A stretch of DNA of 64,000 nt from Plasmodiophora brassicae (taxonomy: Eukaryota): NCBI GenBank assembly GCA_036867785.1, contig CP145410.1, positions 372,001-436,000 of the forward strand, in the 5' to 3' direction. A model generated the notes under the pieces. That model made no database searches, had not been told where the DNA came from, and saw only the letters and a program-made list of their open reading frames with translations. Positions within the stretch are counted from its first letter, which is position 1. Each line of letters opens with the position of its first letter. A program made the translations under genes and the position numbers. Below are positions 6,667 to 27,116 of this stretch, in pieces.

Positions 6667-8628
6667 CTATTGGCCAGCTTGCCGCTTGGCAAGAATCGTC
6701 TGTTTAAGGGAGTACAAGCGGAACGTTAGGAGCTTGTAAAGGTCGAAGTCGTTGTAGCTGGAGGCTCGTTCATGAGCGGCCTCAGCCAGGTCGAGGTCAC
6801 CGGCTTTGACTTTCCACAGGGCGTATGTCGTCCAAGCCCAGGCAACCACCCCGTCAGCATTGGCACGAGGATCCAGGGACCTGGAATCCTCGAAGACGAC
6901 CTTGTATTCCCGTTCGGCAGCGCCTGTATTCCCATTACTGCTGTAGATGTATGCCCTGTACGTGTGATATCGAAGTTGATCTCCAACGCTCCAGGAAGTC
7001 GAGCCGTATCGTCGCAGTTCATCGTCGAGAAGTTCAAGTGCCGTCATTGAAACCTGTAGAGCAGCTGCTAAGCCAGATTCTATCGGTGCTGTCCCATAGA
7101 GAGCGGTCCGACATCGTGGGACATTGACGGGAACGCGTTCCAAACGAGTAGCAGCTCAAATGCATCCAACACGCATCCTCCTGCTTTCTTAGTGAACTGT
7201 GACGCCTATAACGACGAGAGCATACGTGTCAGGAAACCGCTGAACAAGCACAATGGCAGCGTACTTTGCGGAGGCAATAACTGTCCATTGGACGCAACTT
7301 GCCCGTTATCAACCCAGGAACGTCATTGAAGCACTCCATGGCGATTTCATCCTTGCCAGCGCAAAGGAGACAGATGCCGCGATGGTACATGTAGAAGCCA
7401 CGTATGTTGGAGTTCTTCGTGATGCCGCCTTCAACAAGCTGGACATCAACGGAGGCGTTCAGCCAAAGGCGAGACTGTTCACGAGAGCAACCACGTACGA
7501 TTCGCTCTAGGTGCTCGGCCGCATCTGTGAATTGCAACTGAATGAAGTTGCACCATGCGAGCTCATATGAAATCAACTGGCGAAATGCAGGCATCGAGCC
7601 AGCAACGTCCATGGCCACGGTTAACGATGATAATGCCTGTCAGGTCTATAAGAAAAGAGGCAGACCTCATACAGAGCCATATCACCTGTGACATCTCGGC
7701 CCGCGTCCGGTGAAGACGTGATGCAAAGTAGAGGAAGAAGAAGGAGTTGGGGATTCGGCTGCCGGCCCAGGCGATGATCTGGCTGGCTCGATCAAGGTCG
7801 GCCTCAGTTTGCGACCCGATATGTGTAGAGATCTGGACGAAATAGGACAGCAGGCACAGTGCAGAAACCGGGCTGAACAGATGGCCACCGCTTTGCGATT
7901 CGTGTAACAGGCGAAGGCCGTCGGCTCTGTCGGATTTGAACCCGAGAACCCCTACAGGATGATGGTAAAGACAGGATTGGAAGAAACAAGTCGTCAACGG
8001 AACCTGCAACATATACGACTGACGGCGGGAGGATAGACAGGAAGAGGTTGAAGACACCGAGCCCGAACTGAATGCCGCTCTTCAGGTCATCCTTGTCTAC
8101 GCCCTCATACGTTTCTAGCATGACAGCGGCCTCGTCGTACATCCGTCTGGACTTCTTCAGGTTCCACGCCGCCTTAACGTACGACTCCTGCAGAATCTGG
8201 ATCAGCGCCCCGAGTAGATGCGTCTCTCCTGAGAGTACGCCGTGCGTTAGTTCGGTGTCAGTTAAAGGCTGTGCCTTCCCTTGCGACTAACCTTGAACGA
8301 GCTTGCCTTCGACAGTCGGGGACCCTCGACCAACGAGCTCTGCCGCCCACATGCACTTCAAGCTCTCGTCGAGTTCTGCCTTCCCGAACGTGACGATGCC
8401 TAGGTGCACACACACGGGGACATCATTGACCGTCTGCATGGGGGATCGCGTGAATCTGGCACCTTTGACGAACACGGTCAAGGCATACAGCGATTGTATC
8501 CGCGGCCGCCCAGGAAATTTGACGTTCTGTTCCTGCAGGAACCGCTGGCACTCCTCGAACCGGTTCGTGAGCAACAGCTCGAGACCTCGATGGGCGGCAG
8601 ACGTCTCGCGCTCACATTCGCCCGACAT
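6667..8628 (-). CDS. TTC39/IML2-family TPR protein, multi-exon
   Basis: GLELLLTNRFEEC, KSGIQFGLGVFNLFLSILP, LGFKSDRADGL, YELAWC and YNDFDLYKLLTFR match the TTC39/DUF3808 pattern. Confidence 0.8.
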
Positions 8629-9124
8629 GACGACGAGATACTGGGATACGCCCCAGTGATTCACTGCGCCGACAGGCATGCGACTGCTGTCGGCCGAGAT
8701 CTCGCCCTCGCGTTTCGAGCGCCATAACCGCATGCCGACCCTCATTGACGGGATGCAGTTAGTCGCCCCAGTTCGCTAACTAGGCGACGCGTGCCAGTCC
8801 CACAGTGAAATGTCGATCAAGAGCCTGTCCACAGGCGCCGCCCGCGATGACGTTAACGGCGCACGACTGTCGCGAGCCGGAACTGGGACCTGCCCCGAAA
8901 TGGGACATGCCTCTTGACCATGCGATGAACCGTGCAGTTTCAGTGTACAGTGTGTCAGCAAGCGGTCTTTCGTCGAGCGCGACTGGGATGCGGTAGCACT
9001 CAACGGGGACGAGGGTCTGCACCTGACGGCTGACGGCCCGCTCAAACCGTCACTCCAATCTCCATACGACGCAATTGCGTGACGACTGACGACTGCAGAG
9101 GGACCGCGTCAGGCGACAGACGCC

Positions 9125-9474
9125 ATGCCTGATGATGACAACGAGTTCCGGGGTGCAATCGTCGACCGGCTGTTCCGAGCTACGCTGTCGACCTCGGGCG
9201 TGAAAGGTTGCCGATGCGCGATGTGCTCCATGGTCGACAATCTGACGGTTGACACCGTGTGTGCAGTGTCGAAGGAGGCGCGGGAGCTGACGGCGTTCTA
9301 CATGAAACAGGTTGTTTTAGGTGGGACCGATGCAGTCAATGTGTAGCGGCGCCCCTGACCACAACCCTGCTTGCAGATGTCCTCCGCCGGTCGACGGCGA
9401 CTGCGATGGACGATTTCGTTGACACGGACGCCCTTGATTGCATCGTTTTTGATACGCTACTCGAGCTGACGTAG
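9125..9474 (+). CDS. CENPX: CENP-X / MHF2 histone-fold protein (3 exons)
   Basis: The spliced product FRGAIVDRLF...KVSKEARELTAFYMKQVVLDVLRRS...VDTDALDCIVFDTLLELT resembles CENP-X along its length. Confidence 0.75.
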
Positions 9475-9990
9475 CAGCACTCGGGTTATGGTCTTATATG
9501 TAATATATAACCACACACAGCATCTTGGTGGATATCTGCATGTTAGTTGTCAGACGTTCCGCTTGACGGTGACGGAATCAGCGACACCGACCATAAAGAG
9601 GTTAAACGGGCACGGGACAGCAAGATGCCGTCGGTCATCTCATCCGCCCACATCATACCAATGAGGTCATCGCCATACCTGCGGAAACGTGGCCACACAC
9701 ACACACACCATATCCTTTAGCGACAATGTCAATTTCCGTCTCATTCAGTAGCAGACGACAGATTGTCCACACACCTGTTACAGGAACAACACGATCTTCC
9801 GTCGTCCAGAACCACATTGAGCCACTCTGTCGGAAAAGGGTGTCATTCCTGAAGTACCAGAAGGCCTACGATTCGAAGCCATGATTGGGGACATGGCCCG
9901 ATCAGCCGGGCGGTCACTGATCTGGCTGAAAGGGTCAGCCATCGGAGACGTCATGCATCGGTGCATGCGAAGCGTGGCACGCCTCCGTAT

Positions 9991-10131
9991 GTAGGTCTGA
10001 CTTGAACTGGCTTCGAAGACCACAAGGCGCCAGAGACAACGTAACATCGCTCAGCATGCAACGGGCGAGGTGGTTGTATTGCCAGTACGCCCATGGTATC
10101 ATTGATATCCCTGGGAAACGTCCTGAGCAGG
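9991..10131. repeat. Dispersed repeat copy A (inverted relative to 43971-44132)
   Basis: Shares CTCAGCATGCAACGG, AGGTGGTTGTATTG and TATCCCTGGGA with the reverse complement of the 44 kb copy. Confidence 0.8.
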
Positions 10132-10280
10132 TCCTGAAGGCCGATACCACGGACAAGGTCGCTGAACAAGATAGCGTGTCACTCGTTTCTCGCCTTTGCA
10201 TTCAATGTCGTTAGCCTCAGCTTCGTTGACCGTGATGTGGTTTCCCTGTGTGTTTAAGGCAACAACACCTTATGTACATT

Positions 10281-12309
10281 TTATCGTGGGTTTAAAGATG
10301 GTTTGCGACCTCGCTGAAACAGCGCATCAGCGAATGTAACTGGGCGATTGCCAGCGTGCGATTCAGGGCCCGCCACGGCGAGCGAGAAATTCTGCTCGAC
10401 AAGCTGAGGATCGTCGTCGAGAGCAACAATGTCCTCATCATCAGCCAGAGAAACATTGTCGTCTGCGGCTTCCTGCGGGTTATTATACTCCAAACACGCG
10501 TCGTTGAGGTTCGACGCGGTGACGGTATGCAGCGCGCCTTTGGAAAAGAACGACTCAATTGTCGTCTGCTGTAGAGGCTTATCATCATCCTCGCCGGCCA
10601 ACGAACTCAGCCGTAATCCCATCAGCCGCAGGTGCAGCGGATACAATTGTCGAAGCAGGTGGAGGCCGACTTGTACGATCTCGTCTACACGCCAAATGAA
10701 GCTACGGTATGGAAGTCAGATGGTGCACGAAACGGCATGACGGATTCCTACTGGGGCAAACTCATCGACCTTGACGTGACTTTGAAGTCGACTGATTTAA
10801 CGACTAGTGTCAGAGTCTTGCCTTTGTACTTCCCTCGCAGGTCTTCCACAAGCATGGCAGCAATCTCTCTGAGCTTCCCCTCCAAGTCGACAGAGTGTTT
10901 CAACGAACGAAACGTTCTCGATACGCTGACGCTCTTGCGAGGTTGAAACTCCAGATCGGTTTCGCTGCGCTTGGACCTGCCAATGCCGACCATGACGCGC
11001 ATCAGCCAGTCCAGGGAACGAGGCGAAAACGCTCTCTGTGCCCGGAACACCTGCCGATGCTCCAACATCAGGAAACCGACGCTGCCCAAACGATAACCAC
11101 AGCACGACCGACATGCTGCAAGAACTGACCACATGTGCCCACCCCGATCTCTTTCAGTATCTGTCCAAAGTGCTCTTATCAGCGCTACGCGATGCGCCAG
11201 ACGGCACACTGAACATTACGCGCTCGGTGACTCGCCCGACTCTAGGTATCTTCCGGGTCGGCAGGTCATACATAAATTTGGCAATTGCTTCGCGTGTACT
11301 CTCGAGGCAGAACTGGCCGTTAGGTTTCCCCATATCGGAGCAAATCTAGCAGCATACGTCAGCCAGGTCTCAACAACACACACAATCAACGATTACCTTG
11401 GCAAGCATCTGGTTGCAGGCGATGCCGGCGCTAGCCGTTAATCCTCGTGTCGCTGTGCAGACTCTGTCCCGAATAGCCTGTGCGACCTGCGAACCGGTCA
11501 TGCCGGCATGGTCTGCCAGGTAGTCGGTAACATCAAGGGCCGCCTCGTCCAGCGACCACGACGAGTATTGCGGGTCGTACTCGGCGAATATGGCACGGCA
11601 GCGACTAGCAGCTTCCTTGTACGCGTCGAAATCTGGAAGCAGATCAGCCACGACGAGACACACGCGTACAGCGTCTCTGTCCATACCGTGCTTTACGAAG
11701 ACTAGATCCGGGCAGAGCTTGACAGCAATAAACCCTGGCGCACCACTATCAGAAGATCCCGGGCAAGGGAACGTCCCAGCAAGTACCTGGCATGGCGCTT
11801 CGTACACCGTACTGCCTAGCGACATAGTTCGCCGTCGATATCATCTGCATGCCGCCAACGGCAACTGGTTTCCCAACAAGCGACGGATCGTCCCGCATGG
11901 CAACGGCGGCGAAGAACTGATCCATATCGATATGGATCCAGGTCCTGGAAAGCACGATCCCGTCAATCAGTTGCCGGGCGCGCGCAGTGGCCTCCACCGT
12001 CGCCCGTCGTTCCTCGTCTGGATCAACGTTGACGAACCGCTCCTTGAGCGCCTCCAGCTGAGCAGTGACCCGCTCCGCCTGGCGCTGCTGATTGCGGAAA
12101 TACGCCGAGTCTTTGCTGGCCTCGTAAATCACCTGGTGCGTTCGCTGCACGTCGATCCCGCCCATGCCCGCCTTCTGCCCCGTGAAATGGAATAAATGCT
12201 TATGCGATGTGCCGACATCGTCGCCCAGCGGCCCGTCTGCGTTGTCGTCGTCGTCGCCGCTGCTGCTGCGCGACTCACGGCCATCCGCGTCGGCATCGGC
12301 ACCCATCAT
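10281..12309 (-). CDS. POLK: DNA polymerase kappa (Y-family, DinB), multi-exon
   Basis: N-clasp KAGMGGID...[40 protein letters not shown] and [10 protein letters not shown]. Confidence 0.95.
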
Positions 12310-12501
12310 CACGCGTGGCCAACGGCGGCAACTCCGATTTCCGCCCAGTCGTCCATCGCTCGCTGCATCACGGTGGCGGGTGGCCACTGCCAGCTTCTAT
12401 TTCGGTTGACTCAGGGGGCAGCGCCAGCCTACCCATCTGCGCATGACCAGGTGTGCTGGACCAGTGGTTGTATACCCGTCATGTTCATTCGGGCGCAACG
12501 A

Positions 12502-13603
12502 TTATCGCGTCACGCGCTGTCGCTGCGATCGCAGATGCGCGAGTTCCGACTGGGCGTCGTCCAGCTGCTGGAGGATCTCGAGCAGACGTTCGTGGACGGA
12601 TTGCGACGTGCCCTGGTCGAGCTGGTCAATGAGTTTCGCGGACCGGACGGTCAGCTTGCGGACGGAGCTTTCGAGGCGCGATACGCGATCGGGTAGCAGT
12701 GCATGGCGCGCCGGTAACGATGCGTGCGGCTGGCGCGTTTTCGTCTTCCGGCATCGCTGCTTCAGCACCGATTTGCTGTACATCATCAGGAGCTGCTCCA
12801 GGCGGTCGCATCGCGCTTTCAGCAGCTGGCATGCGTCATCGGCCTGCGTTCCTCGTAGGAGCCTGACGATCTCCTCGTCATCCCTGTCGCGATCTTTGGC
12901 GTCGGCAAACCGCGTTGCCGACGTTACGCTGGAAATGGGCAGCGGGGTCGCGCTGGCGATAGGTACGTAGGCGATGGGTACAGGAGTAGGTGACGGCGCC
13001 ATGTAGGCCCGTCTGGAGAGAGCAGGAGGTGGCGAATAATGGACATCAGACGAGTCGGGTTCCGGGTCCGTCTGGGTCCCTGTGGTGTACGATTGCTTCG
13101 GGCGGGACACGTTCGACAGTTCAGCGCGGGACTCATCGAGATTCTGGGATAGTGCTTCAGCTGCCTGAGTACTGGCGTGCAGGCGCGCCTTCAGGTCCTT
13201 GACCTGCCGCTTGCAATCGGCGAGCTCAAGACGCAGACCTGGACGGTTGGTATGAGACGCCGAGTGACAAGAAGGCGCAACAGCTGAGAGGATGTACCGT
13301 CCGCTTCCTTGACCGATCGGTCGAGTTCGTCCAGAGCCGACCGATTATGCGTCGTCAGGCGCTGAACGTCGGCATCATGCGATGCTCGCGATCTTTGCAG
13401 GTCGTCGTGGGCGCGGCGCAGGTCGTCGGCGTACCGGGCGGCATCGCGATCCCGGTCAAGCTGCGCCTCCTTCACCTTCGTCTGCAGCACGCGAAGTGCC
13501 GCAACGGCCGCTGGGCACAACGCACCTGCTCAGCACCATGCAGGCCGCTCCTACGTCGTCGCATCGAACCTTTCGACGAGATCTGGGTCGGCATGCCCAT
13601 CAT
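12502..13603 (-). CDS. Coiled-coil protein, possibly Cep57/Ppc89-like centrosomal
   Basis: AVAALRVLQTKVKEAQLDRD resembles the Cep57 N-terminal coiled coil. Pro-rich linker and C-terminal coiled coil; spliced. Confidence 0.45.
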
Positions 13604-13842
13604 CGTGCTAGCCCAACCCAAGACCCTTGATTATTATCGATGTGGTACGCCCTCCAGATCGCACTCTGCTCCGACCGATTTCCCCCTGCGCTCAGACTTA
13701 GCCAGTTTGAACGTCAGCGTTCAGGGCAGGTGGCACAAAGAACGGGGGGCACGACACGATCGGCTCATTCCCTCCGGCTCCTGCTCTTCGAGCTGGTGGT
13801 TCCCCCAAATTAGATGCTTCGTTGCGGCATAGCGGTGGCGGC

Positions 13843-16206
13843 ATGGTTGGCGCAGGCGTTGCCCGGAGCGCAGGTCGTCGCTTGCGCGCACCACGAGGAG
13901 TCGCGACCCGGGCCAACGCCCAGCACGTGGTAGCATTTAACGGTCAGCGGTGCAGCACGCCGTCCTCCCTGTTCGCGTCGTTCGCCAGGTCGCCCTCGAT
14001 TGGCCTGGCCGTTCGGGTGCTGATGGGCGAGGACGACCCAGATCGCGGATGGAGCGTGTATCAACGCGTCATGCAGGCAGGCGATACGCCTGGGCTTCCG
14101 TTCTTCCAGTCAATGATGATATTCTGCCTGCGCCACGTTCCCGGGAAGGCACCGGACGTCCTCCAGGCGGCATATGCTCGTGGCCTGCCGATCACTGAGA
14201 AGCTCTTCGCCATATTCCTCACCGCTTGTCACAAGACGGACCCGCCGCTCATGCGCCAGGCCCTCGACCTGTACTCGAGATGCGGACCGGTCACCCACGA
14301 TGTCCTCTACAAGCTGGCGAACCTATGCCGAGTCTCAAAGTACCCCGGATCGGCCCTGTTTCTCGTGCCCGTCGCCGTCCGACACGGCGTCGAGTTCTCT
14401 GAAAAGCTTCTGTCCCTGTTCGCCGCTTGCTGCGCCGAATCGGCGTGCCTCGAGGCGGCCGACACCGCAGAACGGCTTCTGAACCTGGTCCACTCGAGGA
14501 CAATCACCCCACACGCCAACTACCAGCTGTATTCGAACCTGATCAAACCGCTGCTAGCACAAGGACGGGTGGATGCAGCGGTGAACGCACACACCCTGAT
14601 GGAATCGATTGGTCTCCCACCGACGGTGCACACGTACACACACGTGCTCGACGCCCTTGCGAAGGCAGGTCGCGTTGCCGATGCCATGTCGCTGTTCCAG
14701 ACCATGGTGAGGCGAAAGATCCCTGTCGCTGTCCCCGTCCTCGCTTGCATGATCGCTGCATGCGGCCGATGTTTCGCTCTAGAGTCGGTCCAAGTTCTCC
14801 ATCGGCACGCTCGGGACAATGACCTTCTTCTTCCTAACGACATTGTCGTGTGCGCGCTGATCCTCGCTTACAGTCGGTGCGGAAGCATCGCCGACGCCGG
14901 GCATGTGTTTCAGTCGCGAATTGCATCATCGAGCGGGGTGCCCCATGAGCAGGTGTTCTCTTTCATGATCAGGTCGTACAGTGAGCATCGCATGATCGAC
15001 GAGCAGGCCAAGGCGTTCGCCCAGATGCAATCCCTTGGAGTGACGCCATCACAGCAGACGTTGACGACAATGGCAACCGACCTGGCCAGATGCGCGCGTA
15101 TCGCTGATGCACTGGCTCTGTTCCCCACCATCACCGACCTGAACGTGCCGCTGTTCACGACCCTGATCAGGTCGGTTCCTGGGCACCACCTTCAAACGTT
15201 GCTTGGCTTCGCACAAGGGAGAGACCTGCTGGCGACCGATGACAACGTTGTCAGTGCGTTCATCATCGCGTTCGCGAACTGTGGTCAGCTTCCCAGAGCG
15301 GAGCACGTGTTCCGCACCCGATGCGTTCACGCCATCCCGAACGTCGCCACGTTCAATGCCATGATCGCAGCGTATGCCCAGTTCGGGTGTTTACCGCAGG
15401 CCATGAAGGCGTTCGCCCACATGAAGGCCGTTGATCTGCGACCTGATGCCATCACGATGACCGGCCTCATCGCATCGTGCTCGCACGCCGGCGACGTCTC
15501 TGTCGCCAGTGCCATCCTGGGCGAATTCTCAGCCGGCATGAAGCTTCGTATCCTGTCCGAGCACATCGCCTGCCTTGTCGACCTGCACGGAAGGATCGGC
15601 GACCTGGACGCCGCTGAACGGATTGCTGCGGCCGCGCCGAACGCCGACTCCCGTTCCTGGATATCAATCCTTCGTGCCTGTGCCCATTGCGGCGACCTGC
15701 AACGCGCTGAGCGGATCTTCGCCCGGATCACATCGATCCCTGGCGCCTGCCCACATCTTCCGCACGCCTACGACCTCATGAAGGCCATGCTCTTCGATGT
15801 CGGGCGGGATTCCGATGCCCGCCAATTGCTGGACGAGATGCAAAGCAAAGGCGTTGCAATCGCCGTCGGTCGCACCAGTTTACATCTCGCTGATGGACTG
15901 AAGGACTTCCAGGCGTCCCCGAGCCCCGGCGTCGACCTCACTGCCCTGCTCGACGACGCTACTACTGAAGGGCGTGACGATGGCGACGTTATACACAGCG
16001 AGGTGCTCGCTGTGGCGCATGCACTGTCTGAATTGCCGCCCAGCGAGCCGATTCGGTTGCTGAACGACGGGCGCGTTTGTCGGGATTGTCACCAGATCCT
16101 GAAGCGCGCCTCGTCGGTCTGCGACCGGGACGTGTTCCTTCGGGAGACGGCCGGCCTGCACCATCATTTCCGGAGCGGCGCCTGCTCGTGTGGCGACTAC
16201 TGGTAG
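13843..16206 (+). CDS. PLS-class pentatricopeptide repeat protein with E1-E2-DYW cytidine deaminase domain (intronless)
   Basis: Multiple 35-aa-like PPR motifs, P2/L2/S2/E1/E2-like motifs, HSE...RVCRDCH...HHFRSGACSCGDYW C-terminus, and an Arg/Ala-rich N-terminus. Confidence 0.95.
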   Translation: MVGAGVARSAGRRLRAPRGVATRANAQHVVAFNGQRCSTPSSLFASFARSPSIGLAVRVLMGEDDPDRGWSVYQRVMQAGDTPGLPFFQSMMIFCLRHVPGKAPDVLQAAYARGLPITEKLFAIFLTACHKTDPPLMRQALDLYSRCGPVTHDVLYKLANLCRVSKYPGSALFLVPVAVRHGVEFSEKLLSLFAACCAESACLEAADTAERLLNLVHSRTITPHANYQLYSNLIKPLLAQGRVDAAVNAHTLMESIGLPPTVHTYTHVLDALAKAGRVADAMSLFQTMVRRKIPVAVPVLACMIAACGRCFALESVQVLHRHARDNDLLLPNDIVVCALILAYSRCGSIADAGHVFQSRIASSSGVPHEQVFSFMIRSYSEHRMIDEQAKAFAQMQSLGVTPSQQTLTTMATDLARCARIADALALFPTITDLNVPLFTTLIRSVPGHHLQTLLGFAQGRDLLATDDNVVSAFIIAFANCGQLPRAEHVFRTRCVHAIPNVATFNAMIAAYAQFGCLPQAMKAFAHMKAVDLRPDAITMTGLIASCSHAGDVSVASAILGEFSAGMKLRILSEHIACLVDLHGRIGDLDAAERIAAAAPNADSRSWISILRACAHCGDLQRAERIFARITSIPGACPHLPHAYDLMKAMLFDVGRDSDARQLLDEMQSKGVAIAVGRTSLHLADGLKDFQASPSPGVDLTALLDDATTEGRDDGDVIHSEVLAVAHALSELPPSEPIRLLNDGRVCRDCHQILKRASSVCDRDVFLRETAGLHHHFRSGACSCGDYW

Positions 16207-16355
16207 TATCGTTAACGTAAGATCGCGCCCGCGCCCGTGCCTGTATCCTATTAAAACGGGGGTAGGTGATCGGTCGATGGGGTACCCTTGAGCACTGACC
16301 TCTCTGTATGTGGCGTGTGGTGCCGGTCGACGCCTAGATTGAGTCGCGGGCGCCG

Positions 16356-19300
16356 ATGCCTTCCGCTGATGACAAGGACGACCAGCACGGTCCGTCCCTG
16401 CAGCACGACCATCATCGTCAACAGCAACCATCGCCCCAGGCAGCGGCCGGCGATGGCGCCGAATCCGTGTACGACGACATCTCCAGCGCGTTCGTCGACG
16501 AGATCTTCCGGGCGCGATGCGATGACCTGGGCATCGCACCGTCCCCCGAGGCGTTCCGCCGCTTCGAGACCGTCCTGAAGCGGAAAGTCGTCGACACGAC
16601 GTTCGACATGGCGCAGAACGGGATGGGCCCGGCGTCGGCCGCGTGCATATCGAAGTGGCTGGCCGGCGACGACCTGTTCGACCGGGTCGACCTGTCGCGG
16701 AACGCCATCGGCAACGCGGGTGCCGCCCATGTCGCCGACCTGGTCCGTGCCAACCCGAACCTGACGTCGCTGACGCTTCGGTCGAACGACATCACGGCCA
16801 GCGGTGTCGTCGACCTGGCCGGCGCCCTTTCGACGTCCACGACCATGACGTCGCTGGATCTGTCATCGGACACGGGCTTCCAGAAGAACACGTTGGGCGA
16901 TCGAGGCGCGCAGGCCTTGTCGCAGGCCATCGCCGCCTGCCCGACGTTAACGTCGGTCTCTCTCGGCAACGTCGGGTCGGCCGGCCTGGCCCACGTCTCG
17001 CAAGCCTGCATGGCACGAGTCCAGCACCTGGACCTTCGCGCCAACAACATCGGGGACGACGCGTGTGCGGCCGTGCTCGCACCGCTGGCATCGTCCGCCG
17101 CTCTCACGCACCTGAACCTGTCCAGGAACGCGCTGACCGACGTCGTCACGCCGGCGATCGTGTCCCTGCTGTCGACATCGTCGTCGTCGCTTCGCCACCT
17201 GGATCTATCGCATAACGGGTTGTCGCGCGCGTTCGCCCTCGGCGTGCGTTCCGTGCTCGAGACGCCCGACACGGCCCGCCTGCAGACGCTGATTCTGGAT
17301 GGGAACGCGCGGCTCGGGCAAGGCAAGGGCCACACGCCCCTGATCCAGGGGTGCATGCGCCACCCCTGGCTGACGACGTTGTCGCTGGTGCGCTGTGCGG
17401 TCAAGGACTGCTCGACGATCGCCCAGATGCTGAAGGAGAACACGGTCCTGCAACGCCTGTACCTGGCGCAGAACGCCATCGACGACGACGACGCCGTCGG
17501 GATCGGCAAGGCGCTGGCTGGCAATGCGGCGCTCGTCGTCCTGGACCTCAGCGAGAATTCCGTTGGGGACGCGGCCGGGGTCGCCATTGCGGACGGCCTG
17601 TCGACGAACACGACGCTGCAGGAGCTCGTCCTGAAAGACAACTCGCTGACGGACGTGACGGCGACGGCCATCCTGGCAGCGATCCGGTCGCCATCGGCGG
17701 CGTCGTCCCTGAACAGGCTGTCGCTGCGGTTGAACAGCGTGTCGCTGAAGGTGTGGGTGGACCTGGAGGCGGCGCTTCGCGCCAACCGGAACAACCTTCG
17801 CCAGCACATGATTGTCGAGTACCACGGGCAGCTGGCCGACCTGCAGCATCGGGAACGCCAGGCCCGGGAGCGCGTCGAGGCGCTCAGGGCGGAGCTGTCG
17901 GCGCGATCGGCCGCCGACGTCCGCGCCGAGGTCGACGAGGCGCGCGACACGCTGCCGGCGTTCAAGGACGACGAGGAGCGCCAGACGAGGGAGATGCGCG
18001 AGCACGTCCTGCAGGGCAGCAACCGGTGCCGGGCGGCGATCAAGGATGCGACGGCGGCGAAGGACGCGCTGGAGAGCGAGTATCGCCGGGCGTACCGCGC
18101 GTTCGTGTCGCAGTCGCACAAGCTGGACCTGAAGGTCGGCAGCGAGCAGCGCAAGAAGGGCAACGCGTTCCGGGCGCTGCGCAAGCTCCAGAAGGCGGTG
18201 GCGGAGCAGAGCGCGGTCGTTCGGGAGCGGACGCTCCTGCAGCGCGCCCTGGAGCAGCAGTTGCAGGACGAGAGGGACGCGTCGCGGTGGCTGCAGGACG
18301 CCGTCCAGAAGTGGACGGCGAAGATCGAGAAGCTGACGGGGCAGATCACGCTGGAGTACTCGCAGGGCATCCAGACGTACCTGGAGATGCTGGTGCCGGC
18401 GCCGGCCAAGACGACCCGGGTCAAGGCGCGGTGGCAGCGCGTCCGGGAGAAGCGCATGCAGCTGCTGGTCGAGTTCAACGCCGCCGCCTTCATGGCCTGG
18501 TTCCTGGACCCGGCCCGGCCCGCGCCGAACCGCCGGACCGCCTGGCGCGCCGTCGCCGACGCCAACGACCCGAACGCCGGCTACGTCCTGCACGTCAAGG
18601 TGGTGACGAGCGCGGCGGCGCTGGACGCGGGCCGGGCCAAGACGATCCACGCGTCCCACTCGGTCTACTCGATGGCCCTGCACGGCATGGGCCAGCTGAG
18701 CACGATCCTGGTCGCCCTGCACGACCCGGCGCTGGCCACCGAGTTCCGCACCGTCCGCACCGACGTGTCGCACGTCGTCCTGCGCGCCGCCGGCCACGTC
18801 AAGATCGACGACCTGCGCGGCATGATCGCCGGCAAGATCGGCGTCGACGAGGCCGACATCAGCGGCCTGTACCACACGGTCAACCATGCGGGCGGGTGGC
18901 GCGCCGGTGCACGCCGCCTGTCGCGCCGGCGCGCCTCCCTCCACGCCGACGACACCGGCACGGATTCGTCCGACCTCACCGACGACAACGACGACGACGA
19001 CGATGAGGACAACGGCGAGGCGGCGGGCAGTGCCCAGCAGGCGCCCGTCGCGTCGGCCGCGCCGGCGAGCAAGAAGGCGCGCAGGAAGCGGGGCAAGGTT
19101 GTGACCGAGGTGCGGGTGCCCAGTGCGGCGCCGGCGCGGCACGGGACGGCGCTCGAGGAGGTGCAGAACATGTTCCCCGATCCCGAGTCCGATGACGACG
19201 ACGACTCCGACGACGACGACGACGATGGCGGCAACGACGACGACGACGGCGGTAGTGGGCCGCCCGCGCATCGGCGTCAACGTCGCGCCCGATCGGGACG

Positions 19301-20636
19301 CGCTGCGACCCCGGCCCTGCAACGACCCACGCTGGCGTCGCAACGTCGCGGGTCGGATCCGGCGACGGCGCCGACGCCGACGTCGGCGCCGCCCGCCGCC
19401 CGAAGGCATTCGCTGCCGCCCGAGACGGACAAGGCGACGCGGCGGCGGTACGCCGACCTGATGACGTGGTCGTACCATCACTCGCCGATGATCATGATCG
19501 AGCGGCGGCCGCTGGCGCCCGTGGAGACGGGCGGCGGCGCTCGGCCGGACGCGTCGGGCGGTGCTGCTGCGGCTGCTGCTGACGGCGGCGGGGCGGGCGA
19601 CGTCGAGACGCGGCTGCGGTCGGAGCTGGTCACCGCCGAATCGACGCTGGGCCCGATGCACCCGGCCGTGTCGACGACGCTGACGTTCATGGGCGCGTAC
19701 TACTCGCAGATGCATCTGTGGGCGGAGGCGGAGGCGGCGTACCTGCGGGCGTTGCACATCCGGGAGAAGGCGTTCGGCAGGCGGCACCCGCACGTGGCCA
19801 CCGTCCTGCACAGCCTGGCGCAGGTCTACGCCGAGCAGCCCGAGCGCCTCGAGATGGCCGAGCCGTTCCTCGTTCGGGCGATCGCCGTGCGGGAGAAGAC
19901 GCTGGGCCGGCAGAACCCGATCGTGGCGGACAGCCTGACGAGCCTCGGGCGCCTGTACGAGCGCATCGTCCGGTGGCAGGATCGGGCCGAGCCGCTGTTC
20001 GTCCGGTCGTTGACGATCCGGGAGCGGATCTATGGCAAGCGGCACGCGCTCGTGCTCGAGTCCCTGCAGGACCTCGCCCGCGTCTACGAGCGCAAGCAGC
20101 GGCAGTTGAGGAGGCAGCATGAGCATTCCGGTGATGACGACGGGGAAGCGCACGACGGCAACGACCATGGCAACAACGACGACGGCGACGACGACCTGCT
20201 GCCAATCCAGCAGAGGGCAATGGGCGCGCGCCCCCGCGTCCAAGTGTCCAAGCCGGCGCCGTTGGTGTCGGCCACGATGGGCGACCTGAACCCGGCATAC
20301 AAGCTGGACTCGGAGGAAGGGTCGCCGACGATCTACAGGAACACGCTGCGGCCCGCGTTCAGGCCTGTGTCGTTGCGGGTGCACGGCACCACGTCGCAGC
20401 AGGACCGGGCGTCGGCGTACCCGGACGGCGTCCACAGCCACAGCACGCTGGACTTCTCGGATGCGGGCGCCGGTGCCGATGCCACGCCCTGGATCACGAA
20501 GCGGCGCCTGCTGAACGTCAAACCCTGGAACAAGCTGGTCCACACGCAGACGCCGCCCTCGTACACGCTGCCGCGCGTCCAGTTCCAGGGCGGCGGCCCG
20601 CTGTCCTTGCTGAAATCGAACGCATCACAACCATAA
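16356..20636 (+). CDS. Large RNI-like LRR + coiled-coil + acidic linker + kinesin-light-chain-like TPR protein (single ORF, 1426 aa)
   Basis: LxxLxLxxNxIxxxG repeats, and TPR units such as LGPMHPAVSTTL, FGRRHPHVATVLHSLA and LGRQNPIVADSL. Confidence 0.85.
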   Translation: MPSADDKDDQHGPSLQHDHHRQQQPSPQAAAGDGAESVYDDISSAFVDEIFRARCDDLGIAPSPEAFRRFETVLKRKVVDTTFDMAQNGMGPASAACISKWLAGDDLFDRVDLSRNAIGNAGAAHVADLVRANPNLTSLTLRSNDITASGVVDLAGALSTSTTMTSLDLSSDTGFQKNTLGDRGAQALSQAIAACPTLTSVSLGNVGSAGLAHVSQACMARVQHLDLRANNIGDDACAAVLAPLASSAALTHLNLSRNALTDVVTPAIVSLLSTSSSSLRHLDLSHNGLSRAFALGVRSVLETPDTARLQTLILDGNARLGQGKGHTPLIQGCMRHPWLTTLSLVRCAVKDCSTIAQMLKENTVLQRLYLAQNAIDDDDAVGIGKALAGNAALVVLDLSENSVGDAAGVAIADGLSTNTTLQELVLKDNSLTDVTATAILAAIRSPSAASSLNRLSLRLNSVSLKVWVDLEAALRANRNNLRQHMIVEYHGQLADLQHRERQARERVEALRAELSARSAADVRAEVDEARDTLPAFKDDEERQTREMREHVLQGSNRCRAAIKDATAAKDALESEYRRAYRAFVSQSHKLDLKVGSEQRKKGNAFRALRKLQKAVAEQSAVVRERTLLQRALEQQLQDERDASRWLQDAVQKWTAKIEKLTGQITLEYSQGIQTYLEMLVPAPAKTTRVKARWQRVREKRMQLLVEFNAAAFMAWFLDPARPAPNRRTAWRAVADANDPNAGYVLHVKVVTSAAALDAGRAKTIHASHSVYSMALHGMGQLSTILVALHDPALATEFRTVRTDVSHVVLRAAGHVKIDDLRGMIAGKIGVDEADISGLYHTVNHAGGWRAGARRLSRRRASLHADDTGTDSSDLTDDNDDDDDEDNGEAAGSAQQAPVASAAPASKKARRKRGKVVTEVRVPSAAPARHGTALEEVQNMFPDPESDDDDDSDDDDDDGGNDDDDGGSGPPAHRRQRRARSGRAATPALQRPTLASQRRGSDPATAPTPTSAPPAARRHSLPPETDKATRRRYADLMTWSYHHSPMIMIERRPLAPVETGGGARPDASGGAAAAAADGGGAGDVETRLRSELVTAESTLGPMHPAVSTTLTFMGAYYSQMHLWAEAEAAYLRALHIREKAFGRRHPHVATVLHSLAQVYAEQPERLEMAEPFLVRAIAVREKTLGRQNPIVADSLTSLGRLYERIVRWQDRAEPLFVRSLTIRERIYGKRHALVLESLQDLARVYERKQRQLRRQHEHSGDDDGEAHDGNDHGNNDDGDDDLLPIQQRAMGARPRVQVSKPAPLVSATMGDLNPAYKLDSEEGSPTIYRNTLRPAFRPVSLRVHGTTSQQDRASAYPDGVHSHSTLDFSDAGAGADATPWITKRRLLNVKPWNKLVHTQTPPSYTLPRVQFQGGGPLSLLKSNASQP

Positions 20637-20730
20637 TGCAGTTATTATTACTGGGTCGTCGTCGTCGTTCCCCACACATAGGTATACACACACACGTTCT
20701 AGATAGGTGTCGGGTCGCAGGTCCCTTGTG

Positions 20731-23668
20731 TCAGGCGGGGGACAGGTCAGCGGCGGCGTCTGCGTCGACGACCCCGCTGGCCGCCGCCTGATCGGAGACG
20801 ATGCTGCCCGCCCGGGACGCTCTGCGACTGCCCGTCTCCTTGAGCAGGAAGTTCACCCAGAGGTCGGCCAGGTTCTGCGTCTCGGCCGGGTTCCGGGGCG
20901 GGGACGCGTCGTACTCGTCCGCGTCGTACGGTTTCGGTATGAGCGACGAGAACGAGCCGAGCAGGGACCGCGGGCGCTGCGACTGCAGGATCAGCCTCTT
21001 CTGGTCGTCGGTGAACCCCAGCATGCGGATCATGAGGTTGAGGACCTCGTCGGACGCCTTCTTCTCCAGGAACGTGACCAGCAGCTTGTTCACGAGGCGC
21101 CGATCGACCAGGTTCTCGTCCGACGAGAAATTCCTGATCCGGTCGATCGTCTGCTGCATGGCGTGACGGAGCGTGGCGTTGTCGTTCTCGACCTGCAGCG
21201 CGTACTTCCTGGACGACCGCAGGCGCTCCTCGAGCTGGCCAATGTTGTCCTCGGCCTCGCGCAACGACGACGTCACGGCCGACAGGTCGTCGAGCGCCCG
21301 TCGCCCCTCCTCGGCGACCGCCTTCTGCTCCCGAAGCTCGACCCGCAACTGGTCGACCTCGTCGCGCGACTGCGACTGGAACTGGTCTAGCACCATCTGC
21401 AGGTTGTCCATCGCCTGCGCCTGGGCATCGCATTCGGACGTCTTTGCATCCAGCGCCTTCTGCAGCGCGGCGTAGTCGGCGGCCAGCGCCTCAGCCGCGT
21501 CCAGGTCCAGCTGGGCCTGCCGCAGGGCATCCCGTTGCGCCCGCATCTTCTCCTGCATCTCGTTCACGCGCGTATCGCGTTCGGCGACGGCCATCTGGAG
21601 TTCGCGTCGCAGCCGGGCCACCTGCTCGGTCAGCTGTGCCGTGTCCCGCTGCGCCTGGCCGACCCAGACCTCCTGGCGCGATTCCAGTTCGAGTTGCGCC
21701 TTGGTGCGCGCCTCGATTTGCGCGTTCAGCTCCTTGATGATGGCCGCCTTGTCCTGGAGTTCGTCCTGGAGGTCGGCGACGTCGCGCTCGAGCTCACGCA
21801 CACGAGACGTGGACGACGAGTCCCGCTTGCCGACGGAGCTCAACCTCGACTGCAACTCCTCGACTTGCTGGCGAAGCGTCGTCACCTGCTGGGCCGATTT
21901 CTCCTCGTTGGCGAACGCCGCACGACAATCGCTCTGCAGCGTGGCAATCTGGTCGACGACCGATTTGTACTGCGCCTTCAGCGCCGCGTGCACCTGCGAT
22001 AGCTCTCCCAGCTCCTCCTGGGATTGCTCGTAGGCGGCGGCGATCGACGCGGCCTGCTTCTGGGCAGAATGGCAGTCCTCGATCAGCCGGGCGACGCATG
22101 CGACAACGTCTCCATCTTCGGAAACGTCCAGAAGCTCGCGCATCGACGCAAGAACAGAGGAGCGGTCGTCATGCGACACGGCGGACCTTGCCTCCAACTC
22201 GAGCAGCAGCCGGTCGCGTTCAGCAGTTATTTGCTGTAGGTCGCTATCGTCATCTCGTCGGGCATCCAGGTCGGCGCTCAGGCGCGCGCACTCATCGCGA
22301 AGGTCATTGTTCTCCTCGGTCAGCGCATCGAGTTCCCGGCGGAGGCCTTCTGTTTCCGCGGCGACATCGCCGGCGTGCTCGTCCCGGTCCAAGGACGCGG
22401 CCTGAAGCTGACGTCGAAGGCGGTCGCATTCGGCGGACAGGTCGCGATGCTGGGCCTCGGTCGACCTCGTTAGAGACTCGAGCTCGGAACGTAGGCGATC
22501 GCGTTCAGCCACGGCTCCTTGCAGTACTGTTGCATCGGCGACGGATCCATCTACGTCGTCGTCCGTTGTAGGTCGACGGTTCTCACGTTCGCGCGTCCGC
22601 TCGGCATCCAGCTCCCTCTGCAATTCGTCGGCGCGATCGTTCGCCGCCGTTAGGCGTTTCGACAGGTCGTCGTTGCGACTCAACAGGTTACTGGTGTCCT
22701 GGTCCAGAAGCTCGACGTTGGACTGCAACTCCTGGACCGCTCGTTCCCTTTCAGCGAGGTCGGCCCGCAACCGTTGGATTTCGTCCGCTTCGCCCTCGGC
22801 GTCTTCCTGCTGCTTGGCTCTCAACCGGCCAATGACCTGCTGGCCGGCGACGACGCGTTCCTCGCTGTGAGCAAGGTCCTGGGTCAACTTGGCAATCGAC
22901 TCCTCCTTCGTCGACAGCGTCGATTCGAGCTTCCGCAACTGGTCCTGCAACTGGCCGTTGAGCGTCTGGACGAGTAACGCGCCCGCTTTAGATACCGCCA
23001 ACTGGGGCCCACTGCGGTATCCCCTACCTTGAGATGGTCGACGTCGGCAATGTGTTTGCGCTTCTCGACATGGAACTTCCTCGTCAGCGCCGACATCTGC
23101 TCCGACGATTTGATCTTCTGCCGAATGATGGGTTCGGCCACGTGCTCATGGTCGCTGCCGGCGCCGTTCGACACGGGCGACAAGGATCGCGGGGACGCGT
23201 CCGCGATCGACGACGCGACAATGGACCGCGCCTCGGCCAGCATCGCCTGAAGCTCGGCGATCTCCTCCTGCGGGTGTATGGGCGGCCCGTTAGTACATTG
23301 CCATCACGCCGGATGACGACACGCCGTACGTCCTTATCGGCCATCTGCTTGACGAGCGACTCGGCGCGCTGCCGATCCCGATCGTTGAGGCGGTCCAGTT
23401 CGTCACGAGCACGAGACAGCTGCGCATCAAACGGATCGTGAGCAAGGACGCGCGACCATTCGACACTGGCGAACGCCACCTTATCCTGGAGGCGCATGAC
23501 GCGCTCGACCAGCTCGCCCGGGGCGTCGTCGGGGCCGCACTCGGCCGTATCCCCGTCGCTGAAATCGTCATGGTCGCCCCGGTCGCCGTCGAGCAGGTGC
23601 GCGCCCACCTCTTTGGTCAGCTGCGACACGCTCTGGCTGATCGACGACAGGCGGCCCCACATCGACAT
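20731..23668 (-). CDS. Golgin GMAP-210/TRIP11/Rud3-like (long coiled coil, C-terminal GRAB + GA1)
   Basis: VDRRLVNKLLVTFL...EVLNLMIRMLGFTDDQK (GRAB), LADLWVNFLLKE (GA1), and amphipathic N-terminus MSMWGRLSSISQSVSQL. Confidence 0.85.
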
Positions 23669-23963
23669 GGCGCGGCGCGCACCACCGACGGCCACCAACG
23701 CGCGCGCGCCACCCACGGCCCGTCCGCCGGCGTCGTGCAACGCTGCGGTCGGCACCAGAATAGGTAACTGACGGGCACCGCCGCGCGCCTCAGTCCCCGT
23801 CACACGGCGCGCCGCTGCTCCTCGTGAGGTACGTTCGGGAACGGGCGACCTAAACAGTGTTCGGGACACGTTCGACCGCGTCTGGCACCCGGTGCAGATT
23901 CACCGTGCGCCCCTGGCGACGTCATGATGCAACGGTGTGTATTCGCACGAGCAGACAGACACG

Positions 23964-26900: not shown

Positions 26901-27116
26901 GGCGCCCCAATAACCCGCTCGAAACCATACAGCGAACGGCGGCCCATCGTGCAACGTAAACAGCGGGCGCTGCGCCTGCCTGAACTGCCAGTCGTATAAC
27001 GACGACGACGTCTCGGGTTCCCGCGCATTGATGTCGACAGGGTTGGCTCTCGGCAGGAATATCGTCGCCTTGAACGACTGGTGCGCGAACCGGCGCTGCG
27101 TGTGAGCGAGCAGCAT
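23964..27116 (-). CDS. IARS2: Isoleucyl-tRNA synthetase, bacterial/mitochondrial type, multi-exon
   Basis: [61 protein letters not shown] and C-terminal CQRC/CVRC zinc finger. Confidence 0.95.

Follow-up and report, generated by a model that had tools for sequence, protein, structure and literature searches.

The gene and its genomic setting

The window analysed here, a stretch of 64,000 nucleotides from the plasmodiophorid Plasmodiophora brassicae (contig CP145410.1), holds an uninterrupted ORF at positions 13822..16206; all features described below lie on the forward (+) strand. From its first ATG at 13843, an intron-free coding sequence (13843..16206), delimited by ORF translation and unbroken RNA contigs, specifies a PPR-E1-E2-DYW protein of 787 amino acids followed by a TAG stop. 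The protein matches the Pfam families PPR_2 (3.4e-33), PPR (1.1e-25), and DYW_deaminase (3.2e-21), and among solved proteins it is best matched by 9kfx, a synthetic PPR-DYW protein (3.9e-64, HMMER), whose P2-L2-S2-E1-E2 block aligns to residues 466–691 and whose DYW domain aligns to residues 699–787. The AlphaFold2 model of the full protein has a mean pLDDT of 88, and a structure search with this model returned RNA-bound 9kfx as the top match (1.1e-22). These results confirm the preliminary description of the locus as an uninterrupted ORF with PPR repeats, a P2-L2-S2-E1-E2 block, and a DYW domain, including the five motif strings quoted for P2, L2, S2, E1, and E2, all of which were found in the translation. 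Domain order, family, and genomic context also support its central claim, namely, that a plant-type PPR-E1-E2-DYW protein is encoded in a non-plant genome.

The gene is transcribed. RNA contigs of X17 and X19 cross the whole ORF without a joint (from 12504 or 12601 to 16216), with no indels reported, and spliced RNA contigs cover the locus in 2 of the 3 RNA-type studies compared. None of the listed runs is recorded as RNA, and the three taken for RNA contained spliced contigs. Ten nt past the stop codon lies a 49-nt GT..AG intron (16217..16265; GTAAG...GGGTAG), across which the X17 and X19 contigs join 16216 to 16266, a junction absent from X8 and from the DNA run X3. The intron belongs either to this gene's 3′ UTR or to the 5′ UTR of the next one, which has its ATG at 16356. 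The gene had been regarded as an intronless exception among intron-rich neighbours, a view that is not supported: as judged from RNA contigs, the introns of the neighbouring genes are short and lie mostly at the 5′ end, with long single exons otherwise (the next downstream gene is a single 1426-codon ORF), and an intron follows the stop codon of the gene itself.

Several lines of evidence place the locus within the plasmodiophorid nuclear genome. Its codon usage resembles that of the neighbours (RSCU r = 0.90), half or more of the sampled words occur in 20 of the 24 listed runs from 7 studies, and a single DNA contig of 65.8 kb extends across the locus. Five contigs carry the identical sequence, and the four runs compared showed no reported difference within the ORF. 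Because the locus recurs in 7 studies, is covered by spliced RNA, and shows native codon usage, it is a native nuclear plasmodiophorid gene and not a contaminant. A plant contaminant, the outcome that the preliminary description held would undo its reading, is contradicted by the 7-study recurrence, the 65.8-kb contig, and the codon usage.

Architecture of the PPR array and the DYW domain

The N-terminal 62 residues (13843..14028) are presequence-like, being rich in Arg, Ala, and Ser. They comprise 9 Arg, 11 Ala, and 7 Ser, with neither Lys nor Asp/Glu, the first acidic residue being E63, which bears out the earlier remark on an Arg/Ala-rich N-terminus lacking acidic residues. Residues 1–34 are disordered in the AlphaFold2 model (pLDDT <50), and composition and disorder together fit a putative mitochondrial presequence. 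Five degenerate PPR-like hairpins follow (n1–n5, residues 53–226; 13999..14520), modelled as helical hairpins with pLDDT >90. They score 8–21 against plant consensus units, compared with 4–9 for shuffled sequences, i.e., from below to modestly above the shuffled level, and constitute most of an N-terminal module conserved among the paralogues. Structural look-alikes of this module in the Atlas are PPR proteins.

Eight further PPR motifs (m6–m13, residues 227–500; 14521..15342) were delimited from helix pairs in the model, our parse, and scoring with consensus units of the synthetic PPR-DYW protein. Motifs m9 and m13 are clearly S1-like and m10 is clearly P-like; the L positions are weak or at the shuffled level, with m12 scoring no higher than shuffled sequence. 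On this basis, we read m6–m13 as two putative four-motif units (P-like, short P/S-like, L-like, and S), unlike the P1-L1-S1 triplets of land plants.

Consensus-unit scores and the HMMER alignment to 9kfx define a P2-L2-S2 triplet (residues 501–602; 15343..15648), which precedes E1 (residues 603–635) and E2 (residues 636–670; together 15649..15852), where the model has two helix pairs. Against units of the synthetic protein, P2 scores 71, L2 41, S2 63, and E1 45, compared with shuffled means of 6–7. E2 is placed by the HMMER alignment to 9kfx only, and consensus scoring did not rank it with the top four types for its segment; its start carries about 5 extra residues, which may be the cause of the poor score. 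Thus, the P2-L2-S2-E1-E2 block that characterizes PLS-class editing factors stands directly upstream of the DYW domain, with E2 recognized by alignment only.

For most motifs, the residue pairs at position 5 and the last position fall outside the plant PPR code, which covers only m11, m12, m13, and P2. We take this code to read T/N as A (m11), T/D as G (m12), S/N as A (m13), and N/D as U (P2), which suggests a candidate A-G-A-U element at roughly −9 to −6 relative to the target C; m12 is a weakly matching L-type motif, and the reading is too weak for naming a target. That most pairs lie outside the code counts against C-to-U editing as the function of this protein.

The DYW cytidine-deaminase domain (residues 671–787; 15853..16203) is assigned by fold and by the match to Pfam PF14432 (3.2e-21; 75.4 bits against a gathering cut-off of 24), in which residues 700–787 cover profile positions 7–93 of 93. 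A Foldseek search with the domain model (pLDDT 86) matched 9kfx (1.9e-10, TMq 0.74), the OTP86 DYW domain (7o4f/7o4e, about 2e-8), and DYW1 (7w86, 7e-5), followed by generic cytidine deaminases. The HxE(x)nCxxC zinc signature is present as H718-S-E720 (HSE, 15994..16002), which supplies a zinc ligand and the proton-shuttle glutamate, and C746-R-D-C749-H (CRDCH, 16078..16092), which supplies the other two zinc ligands; the second zinc site and the DYW tail (HxF...CxC..DYW) follow as HHHFRSGACSCGDYW at residues 773–787. The positions given earlier for HSE and CRDCH, the HHF..CSCGDYW ending, and the conservation of H718, E720, C746, and C749 were all verified. With the land-plant PLS-class PPR-E1-E2-DYW factors (solved examples: 9kfx, OTP86 7o4e/7o4f, and DYW1 7w86), the protein has in common its P2-L2-S2-E1-E2-DYW order, a zinc site of the form HxE...CxxCH, the terminal HHF..CSC..DYW, and a deaminase fold.

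Unlike these factors, however, the protein lacks three hallmarks of the canonical gated DYW domain for which OTP86 is the paradigm, and its N-terminal third is the degenerate PPR module common to all paralogues. The gating segment (residues 687–717; 15901..15993), delimited by alignment counts, comprises 31 aa compared with 55 in OTP86, where the gating domain is reported to span H837–G891 (PMC7611903), and with a modal 55 in the family, a shortfall of 24 residues. It is modelled with pLDDT of about 45–64 and no predicted beta-finger, and its last ~17 residues align without gaps to the plant segment preceding HSE (HMMER). Five residues ahead of the first Cys, where OTP86 has K915, the family alignment places N741 (16063..16065), whereas 14 of 25 family rows carry Lys. 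K915 is described as an autoinhibitory, DYW-specific residue which, when the domain is inactive, is paired with the catalytic Glu (PMC7611903). Finally, the PG box reads VGRTSLHL instead of PGxSWIE, with the Gly and the beta-hairpin kept and P, W, and E replaced. None of these departures (short gating insert, degenerate PG box, and missing K915 equivalent) had been noticed in the preliminary description. In OTP86, removal of the beta-finger from the gating domain is reported to leave markedly less editing (PMC7611903). Given the short gating insert and the missing autoinhibitory lysine, this copy may be an ungated deaminase or a weakened one dependent on paralogues.

A DYW family of Plasmodiophora brassicae

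The gene is a member of a family with at least 36 loci, of which 29 have a DYW-type tail, and all named members are P. brassicae proteins. A word-indexed search with the C-terminal 308 residues returned 55 proteins only and missed most paralogues, which were recovered by exhaustive search and cluster look-ups; for the count of DYW paralogues proposed earlier, these protein searches give a lower bound of 29 loci. The protein shows the defining arrangement of the family, in which the shared module is followed by PLS-E1-E2-DYW. Its module (residues ~56–300) is 37–55% identical to those of the paralogues, with blastp E-values of 7e-44 to 3e-87 against 24 other loci, all under P. brassicae names; sought outside the family, the module was found in no other named organism except for a moss protein covering 23% of the query. 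From the module to the DYW tail, the protein is collinear with PBRA_006614, PBRA_007680, PBRA_002268, and XXQ37716. Full-length identity to other P. brassicae DYW proteins is 34–44%, within one clade (98/90), and the paralogues, about 620–1190 aa long, differ in the number of four-motif units. The existence of such proteins was already on record, in that the paralogues had been named automatically as DYW proteins and the literature already records DYW domains from Rhizaria.

HxE and CxxC are intact in 14 of the 25 family rows, including this protein, and the other 11 have lost a catalytic residue, so that the family, as its sequences indicate, is not uniformly enzymatic. Unlike other P. brassicae DYW proteins, this copy combines the shortest gating segment of the 25 rows and the longest terminal branch of the DYW tree (1.34) with a retained HxE/CxxC. 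Because at least 29 DYW-tailed paralogues share a module that our searches met in no other named organism, the sequences indicate that this copy arose through duplication within the lineage, and a transfer from plants, if there was one, must have happened before the family as a whole arose.

In IQ-TREE under a site-heterogeneous model, the family is a clade of its own (100/100) that excludes every one of the 43 plant-like rows sampled. The preliminary description had proposed placing the DYW domain in a phylogeny with plant and protist sequences; the separation from plants was recovered. DYW sequences from Naegleria, Acrasis, Acanthamoeba, Physarum, Malawimonas, fungi, rotifers, and paradinids were among the matches of none of our searches, and the tree is therefore unrooted and without a non-plant outgroup. 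FastTree had placed the family as sister to divergent plant DYW domains (SH-like 100), namely, At4g35130-like and moss domains that themselves lack HSE; this grouping disappeared under the site-heterogeneous IQ-TREE model and was rejected as long-branch attraction. The unnamed EukProt transcript P0136, considered as a bridging relative, was likewise rejected, since it groups with plant sequences in the tree. Beyond the family and two unnamed environmental sequences related to it, every relative identified is a protein of land plants, to which identity is 24–31% over the C-terminal 308 residues. The separate position of the family bears on the question of a plant origin of non-plant DYW genes and does not settle it.

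The Phytomyxea, to which P. brassicae belongs, are placed within Endomyxa. So are the paradinids (Ascetosporea), a group of the same supergroup, Rhizaria, with PPR-DYW proteins of their own (PMC11946409). According to the same report, the paradinid proteins are predicted to be mitochondrial, C-to-U editing has been demonstrated there, and the proteins group with fungal DYW proteins via a shared two-residue deletion; the likeness of the P. brassicae proteins to them is by description only. Equally by description, the family resembles the sporadic non-plant occurrences in Naegleria, Acrasis, Acanthamoeba, Physarum, Malawimonas, rotifers, and fungi, which are usually explained by horizontal transfer (PMC13386178, PMC11946409). 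With at least 29 loci, the family exceeds the quoted per-lineage counts of every non-plant group (e.g., Discoba, 22; Fungi, 15) other than Metazoa and comes close to the 31 DYW domains quoted for all Rhizaria (PMC13386178).

Probable mitochondrial editing and alternative functions

We consider C-to-U editing in the mitochondrion to be the likeliest function of this protein and a probable one, judging from its sequence, its predicted structure, and the analogy with known editing factors. The Arg/Ala-rich N-terminus would direct import into the mitochondrion, to our knowledge the only genome-bearing organelle of P. brassicae. The PPR tract, chiefly the variable m6–S2 part, would bind a specific single-stranded RNA element, E1 and E2 would set a cytidine a few nt downstream into the DYW active site, and zinc held by H718, C746, and C749 would act together with E720 to deaminate C to U. 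PPR-DYW proteins are reported to co-occur with mitochondrial C-to-U editing in paradinids and likewise in other protists (PMC11946409). The mitochondrial genome of P. brassicae is given as 114.7 kb with 54 introns, and applying canonical splice sites to it was described as producing frame shifts and disrupted coding sequences (PMC6823432); editing could contribute to these annotation difficulties. Our literature search found no report of RNA editing in P. brassicae. What counts against editing by this particular copy is the short gating segment, the degenerate PG box, the replacement of K915 by Asn, the longest branch, and the 11 dead paralogues among 25.

Several of these points weigh for a different role, in which the protein would be an RNA-binding specificity or processing factor without deaminase activity of its own. 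Such a factor could assist in splicing, stabilizing, or cleaving the RNAs transcribed from the intron-rich mitochondrial genome; alternatively, it could mark an editing site for a trans-acting paralogue with a full DYW domain, as E+-type PPR proteins of plants do with DYW1, DYW2, or MEF8. We regard this role as unlikely, albeit the strongest of the alternatives. The truncated gating insert, the lost K915, and the degenerate PG box would all suit it, as would the 54 introns of the mitochondrial genome (PMC6823432) and the trans-acting deaminases described from plants (PMC9522420, PMC11121751), and with 11 of 25 paralogues lacking a catalytic residue, non-catalytic roles must exist in the family. 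However, H718, E720, C746, C749, and HHF..CSC..DYW are kept here though decayed in other paralogues, and such retention of the zinc site argues for selection on catalysis. The same retention tells against a decaying paralogue, in which transcription and reading frame persist while function is being lost, as the longest terminal branch, the shortest gating segment of 25 rows, and the weak m12 might imply; 787 open codons, a mean pLDDT of 88, all catalytic residues in place, and a sequence identical on 5 contigs, with no ORF difference reported in four runs, make this improbable.

The remaining explanations are more improbable still. The preliminary description saw in the intronless gene a hint of horizontal transfer or retroposition, and an intron-free coding sequence whose identified relatives, beyond the family and the two environmental sequences, are from land plants could suggest that the gene was recently acquired from the host plant, is a retrogene, or reflects contamination of the assembly. 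That hint fails, and a recent origin of any of these kinds is already contradicted: the neighbours have a similar structure, an intron lies after the stop codon, codon usage is native, the locus turns up in 7 studies, plant proteins are no more than 24–31% identical over the C-terminal 308 residues, and at least 29 DYW-tailed paralogous loci, whose shared module our searches met in no other named organism, form a clade supported at 100/100. Just as implausible is a secreted effector acting on organellar RNA of the host, for which the evidence is circumstantial only: according to a 2026 study, the parasite may manipulate RNA editing in host organelles, a proposal drawn from altered expression of host PPR genes (PMC13247141). 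The account given there concerns host genes, not parasite proteins, and the N-terminus of the present protein is Arg-rich and, by eye, without a long signal-peptide-like hydrophobic stretch.

Mitochondrial editing by this protein may be part of something larger. Tentatively, and with more doubt than for the function itself, we suggest that P. brassicae possesses a large PPR-DYW editing system that expanded apart from plants, in which intact and dead copies share the labour at many mitochondrial sites and this copy acts ungated. Such a system would comprise the at least 29 loci with their own N-terminal module and four-motif unit, with intact and dead copies standing at 14 and 11 of 25 rows; it would edit the 114.7-kb mitochondrial genome and explain part of its annotation anomalies, and this copy would operate without the gating helix alpha-1 and without the autoinhibitory lysine.

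Outside plants, DYW proteins are reported to track mitochondrial C-to-U editing wherever examined and, within Rhizaria, a 2025 account has editing shown only in paradinids (PMC11946409). With about 29 DYW proteins, the clubroot pathogen would be predicted to show substantial, as yet unreported editing of its mitochondrial transcripts, which, if true, would affect the annotation of a difficult, intron-rich mitochondrial genome. In addition, the family contains natural variants of the regulatory insert of DYW domains, among them the short-gated, lysine-less copy described here and the 11 of 25 paralogues that appear catalytically dead, and such variants could inform the control that gating exerts over deaminases now in use as programmable RNA editors.

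The DYW gene and its locus

The DYW gene is a genuine, expressed and native gene, and its PPR-E1-E2-DYW product belongs to a known kind. It lies in a single uninterrupted open frame on the plus strand (13822-16206), within which the CDS extends from the first ATG at 13843 to 16206 and encodes 787 residues followed by a TAG stop. An out-of-frame ATG at 13814-13816, preceding the start codon by 29 nt, may open a short upstream ORF. Pfam searches with the 787-residue protein returned PPR_2 (3.4e-33), PPR (1.1e-25) and, at residues 700-787, DYW_deaminase (3.2e-21; 75.4 bits versus a curated cut-off of 24). The top sequence match among solved structures was the synthetic PPR-DYW protein 9kfx (3.9e-64), to which residues 466-691 align over P2-L2-S2-E1-E2 and residues 699-787 over the DYW domain; DYW1 (7w86, 3.2e-18) and the DYW domain of OTP86 (7o4e, 1.7e-13) were also matched. 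With the synthetic protein's consensus units as reference, the land-plant editing-factor motifs P2, L2, S2 and E1 reached 71, 41, 63 and 45, respectively (shuffled means, 6-7); E2 lay outside the four best types in this scoring and is assigned solely through the HMMER alignment to 9kfx. The motif strings of the preliminary description, as well as its positions for HSE (15994-16002) and CRDCH (16078-16092), are exact in the translation, and the N-terminus is indeed Arg/Ala-rich and free of acidic residues, the first 62 residues comprising 9 Arg, 11 Ala, 7 Ser and no Asp, Glu or Lys.

Recurrence in public sequencing runs, spliced contigs and codon usage resembling that of the neighbors indicate that the gene is native and transcribed. 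Half or more of the words sampled from 13000-17000 were present in 20 of the 24 listed public runs, representing 7 studies; 13 rows among the listed runs are possibly source data. We compared the contigs of four runs over 8001-27000: the DNA run X3, in which one 65.8-kb contig spans all 19 kb, and X8, X17 and X19, which come from three other studies and whose RNA type was guessed beforehand. Spliced forms occur in all three of the latter and are absent from X3. Most of the listed joints (13/15) correspond to CT..AC introns of 50-69 nt, i.e., GT..AG on the minus strand, located in genes that occupy roughly 10.1-12.3 kb, 20.7-23.5 kb and 24.0-26.9 kb (joints within 10051-12286, 22965-23480 and 26190-26931); the latter two genes have their introns crowded near the 5′ end. 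X17 and X19 each contain one contig that extends from 12504 or 12601 as far as 16216 and resumes at 16266, leaving the whole ORF free of joints and removing a 49-nt plus-strand GT..AG intron (16217-16265) that starts with GTAAG, ends with TAG and is positioned 10 nt after the stop codon of the DYW gene and 90 nt before the ATG of the next gene. The X8 contig across the ORF is unspliced and retains this intron. No base differences or indels were reported within the ORF in any of the four runs.

Relative synonymous codon usage of the DYW gene correlates with that of six pooled neighboring ORFs at r = 0.90 (0.60-0.95 for those ORFs), and its GC3 is 0.73 (neighbors, 0.61-0.91). The neighbors are ordinary eukaryotic genes, encoding an LRR/TPR protein (one 1426-codon ORF), a coiled-coil protein and a class I aminoacyl-tRNA synthetase. 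The gene had been portrayed as intronless among intron-rich neighbors; its CDS does lack introns, but this is not distinctive, since neighboring genes also have long single exons.

Elsewhere in the compared region, runs differ by single bases at 17076 (C>T in X19 and X3) and 8861 (G>T in X17), which suggest polymorphism between strains, not editing, given that one of them is also found in the DNA run. At ~18980-20195, within the ORF at 16356-20636, each of the four runs shows contig breaks, rejoinings or loose ends; the long Asp/Gly/Ala-rich low-complexity stretches encoded there have probably led to repeat collapsing in assembly. Depth climbs to 119-369 in the densest bin (18779-19412) and drops towards 50-264 past 19413.

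The paralogue family and its origin

Residues 495-787, used as the query in an exhaustive HMMER search, recovered 11,571 proteins at E <= 0.001, and the members examined here are the most query-identical among the best 150 of these. Residues 56-300, the N-terminal module, are common to at least 24 distinct clusters (blastp, 37-55% identity, E 7e-44 to 3e-87), all 24 of which carry Plasmodiophora brassicae names, mostly under the automatic label "DYW domain-containing protein". A search with the module only (residues 40-300) yielded 18 non-self proteins, namely, 11 named P. brassicae proteins, 6 assembly proteins, including one grouped with a named P. brassicae protein, and a moss protein that covers just 23% of the query. 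Clustering at 85% identity reduced 69 module-bearing proteins to 36 loci, 29 of which have a DYW-type tail; the remaining 7 may be truncated gene models. No second family copy was found within the 64-kb window, where the DYW gene is the sole representative.

P0214 (971 aa) and P0215 (827 aa) are two public gene models of one paralogue, the former probably mis-joined and bearing a hydrophobic C-terminal extension in place of the DYW end. One public annotation labels P0058, P0081, P0132 and P0214 "(mitochondrion)"; these lie on contigs of 1.2-2.1 Mb and the mitochondrial genome is only 114.7 kb, so a submission artefact seems the likely origin of the label, which carries no evidence of location.

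The nearest relatives outside the family are two environmental proteins, P0172 (JGI, 1,061-nt contig) and P0221 (ENA, 7.5-kb contig), the latter weakly sharing the N-terminal module (28% identity, E 7e-15). Both probably derive from another phytomyxid or endomyxan, in which case the family would be older than P. brassicae. Against a profile built from six DYW regions of the family, family members and these two relatives score 222-281 bits, followed by land-plant proteins, mostly at about 200 bits or less, and a synthetic construct; two land-plant proteins score very high and probably contain two DYW domains each. No named non-plant organism besides P. brassicae appeared among the 120 profile matches listed.

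In an IQ-TREE analysis (LG+C20 PMSF, 58 rows, 170 columns; bootstrap incompletely settled), the 13 P. brassicae rows formed one clade (98/90), joined by the two environmental proteins as sisters at 100/100, and a 100/100 branch separated this assemblage from all 43 plant-like rows, with no nesting in any plant subclade. Recent transfer from any of the plant lineages sampled is thereby excluded, a form of the horizontal transfer contemplated in the preliminary description. As the tree is unrooted and has no non-plant outgroup, an ancient transfer is indistinguishable from other histories. A FastTree phylogeny of 273 rows had joined the family to divergent plant DYW domains, a grouping that disappeared under IQ-TREE.

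Predicted structure, DYW domain and function

The AlphaFold2 model, built with 27 family sequences (mean pLDDT 88), comprises a disordered segment (residues 1-34), about 16 PPR-like helix pairs (53-602), E1 (603-635), E2 (636-670) and an alpha/beta domain (671-787), and its best structural match is 9kfx (1.1e-22). Conservation among paralogues is highest in the degenerate N-terminal hairpins n1-n5, even though these hairpins have little similarity to plant consensus motifs, and the Atlas structural look-alikes of residues 40-300 are PPR proteins. By our own parse, the eight motifs between the module and P2 form two four-motif units (P-like, short P/S-like, L-like, S), and paralogues differ chiefly in the number of such units. 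For the DYW gene product, the plant PPR code offers usable pairs in four motifs only, which would read A, G, A and U at about -9 to -6. Modeled separately, E2 plus DYW (pLDDT 86) matches 9kfx (1.9e-10), then the DYW domain of OTP86 in either state (about 2e-8), DYW1 (7e-5) and generic cytidine deaminases.

Excerpts of the OTP86 report (PMC7611903) describe a gating domain, a 55-residue DYW-specific insert (H837-G891) directly before the HxE histidine that comprises helix alpha-1 and a beta-finger; the inactive state has K915 paired with the catalytic Glu, and editing is markedly lower without the beta-finger. In the DYW gene, the corresponding segment has 31 residues rather than 55, the shortest of 25 rows in a family alignment with a modal length of 55, and the E2-plus-DYW stretch is 148 aa long, versus 170-173 aa in five relatives. 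About 17 residues before HSE align without gaps to the plant segment in HMMER, so the absent part is most likely helix alpha-1 and its flanks, although MAFFT divides the gap differently. Both models show this stretch at low confidence and without a beta-finger. The K915 position is occupied by Asn741, and the PG box reads VGRTSLHL.

On balance, we favor the DYW gene product as a predicted mitochondrial site-specific C-to-U editing factor; it preserves the catalytic H, E, C and C along with the C-terminal zinc site. The main rival, which we regard as rather unlikely, is an RNA-binding factor with no intrinsic activity, serving the intron-rich mitochondrial genome in splicing or processing, or providing specificity for the deaminase of a paralogue. 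Among the 25 family rows, 14 keep both HxE and CxxC, and 11 have lost one of them (e.g., HSV, HGP, HCT and RPDGH). These 11 paralogues (P0206, P0060, P0080, P0345, P0099, P0208, P0215, P0338, P0209, P0143 and P0109), which lack the catalytic Glu, His or a zinc Cys, retain the remainder of the DYW domain, suggesting non-catalytic roles or partnership with intact copies. Several paralogues end in deviant tails (DFW, DHW, DRW, GYW and GYR).

Previous records in Plasmodiophora and Rhizaria

By title and abstract, the papers found on Plasmodiophora and DYW do not concern parasite genes. Judging from excerpts, one Plasmodiophora pentatricopeptide paper reports two differentially expressed parasite PPR genes, another deals with host PPR genes (PMC13247141), and editing is not discussed in the excerpted P. 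brassicae mitochondrial genome paper (PMC6823432). Mitochondrial editing in P. brassicae is thus far a prediction from the DYW family. The 24 named paralogues were already auto-annotated as DYW proteins, whereas the family structure, dead paralogues and shortened gating insert appear undescribed in the portions of the literature searched. Excerpts of a 2025 study present PPR-DYW proteins and C-to-U editing in paradinids as the first case in Rhizaria (PMC11946409), and those of a 2026 survey list "31 DYW in Rhizaria" (PMC13386178), which may well be the P. brassicae family genes.
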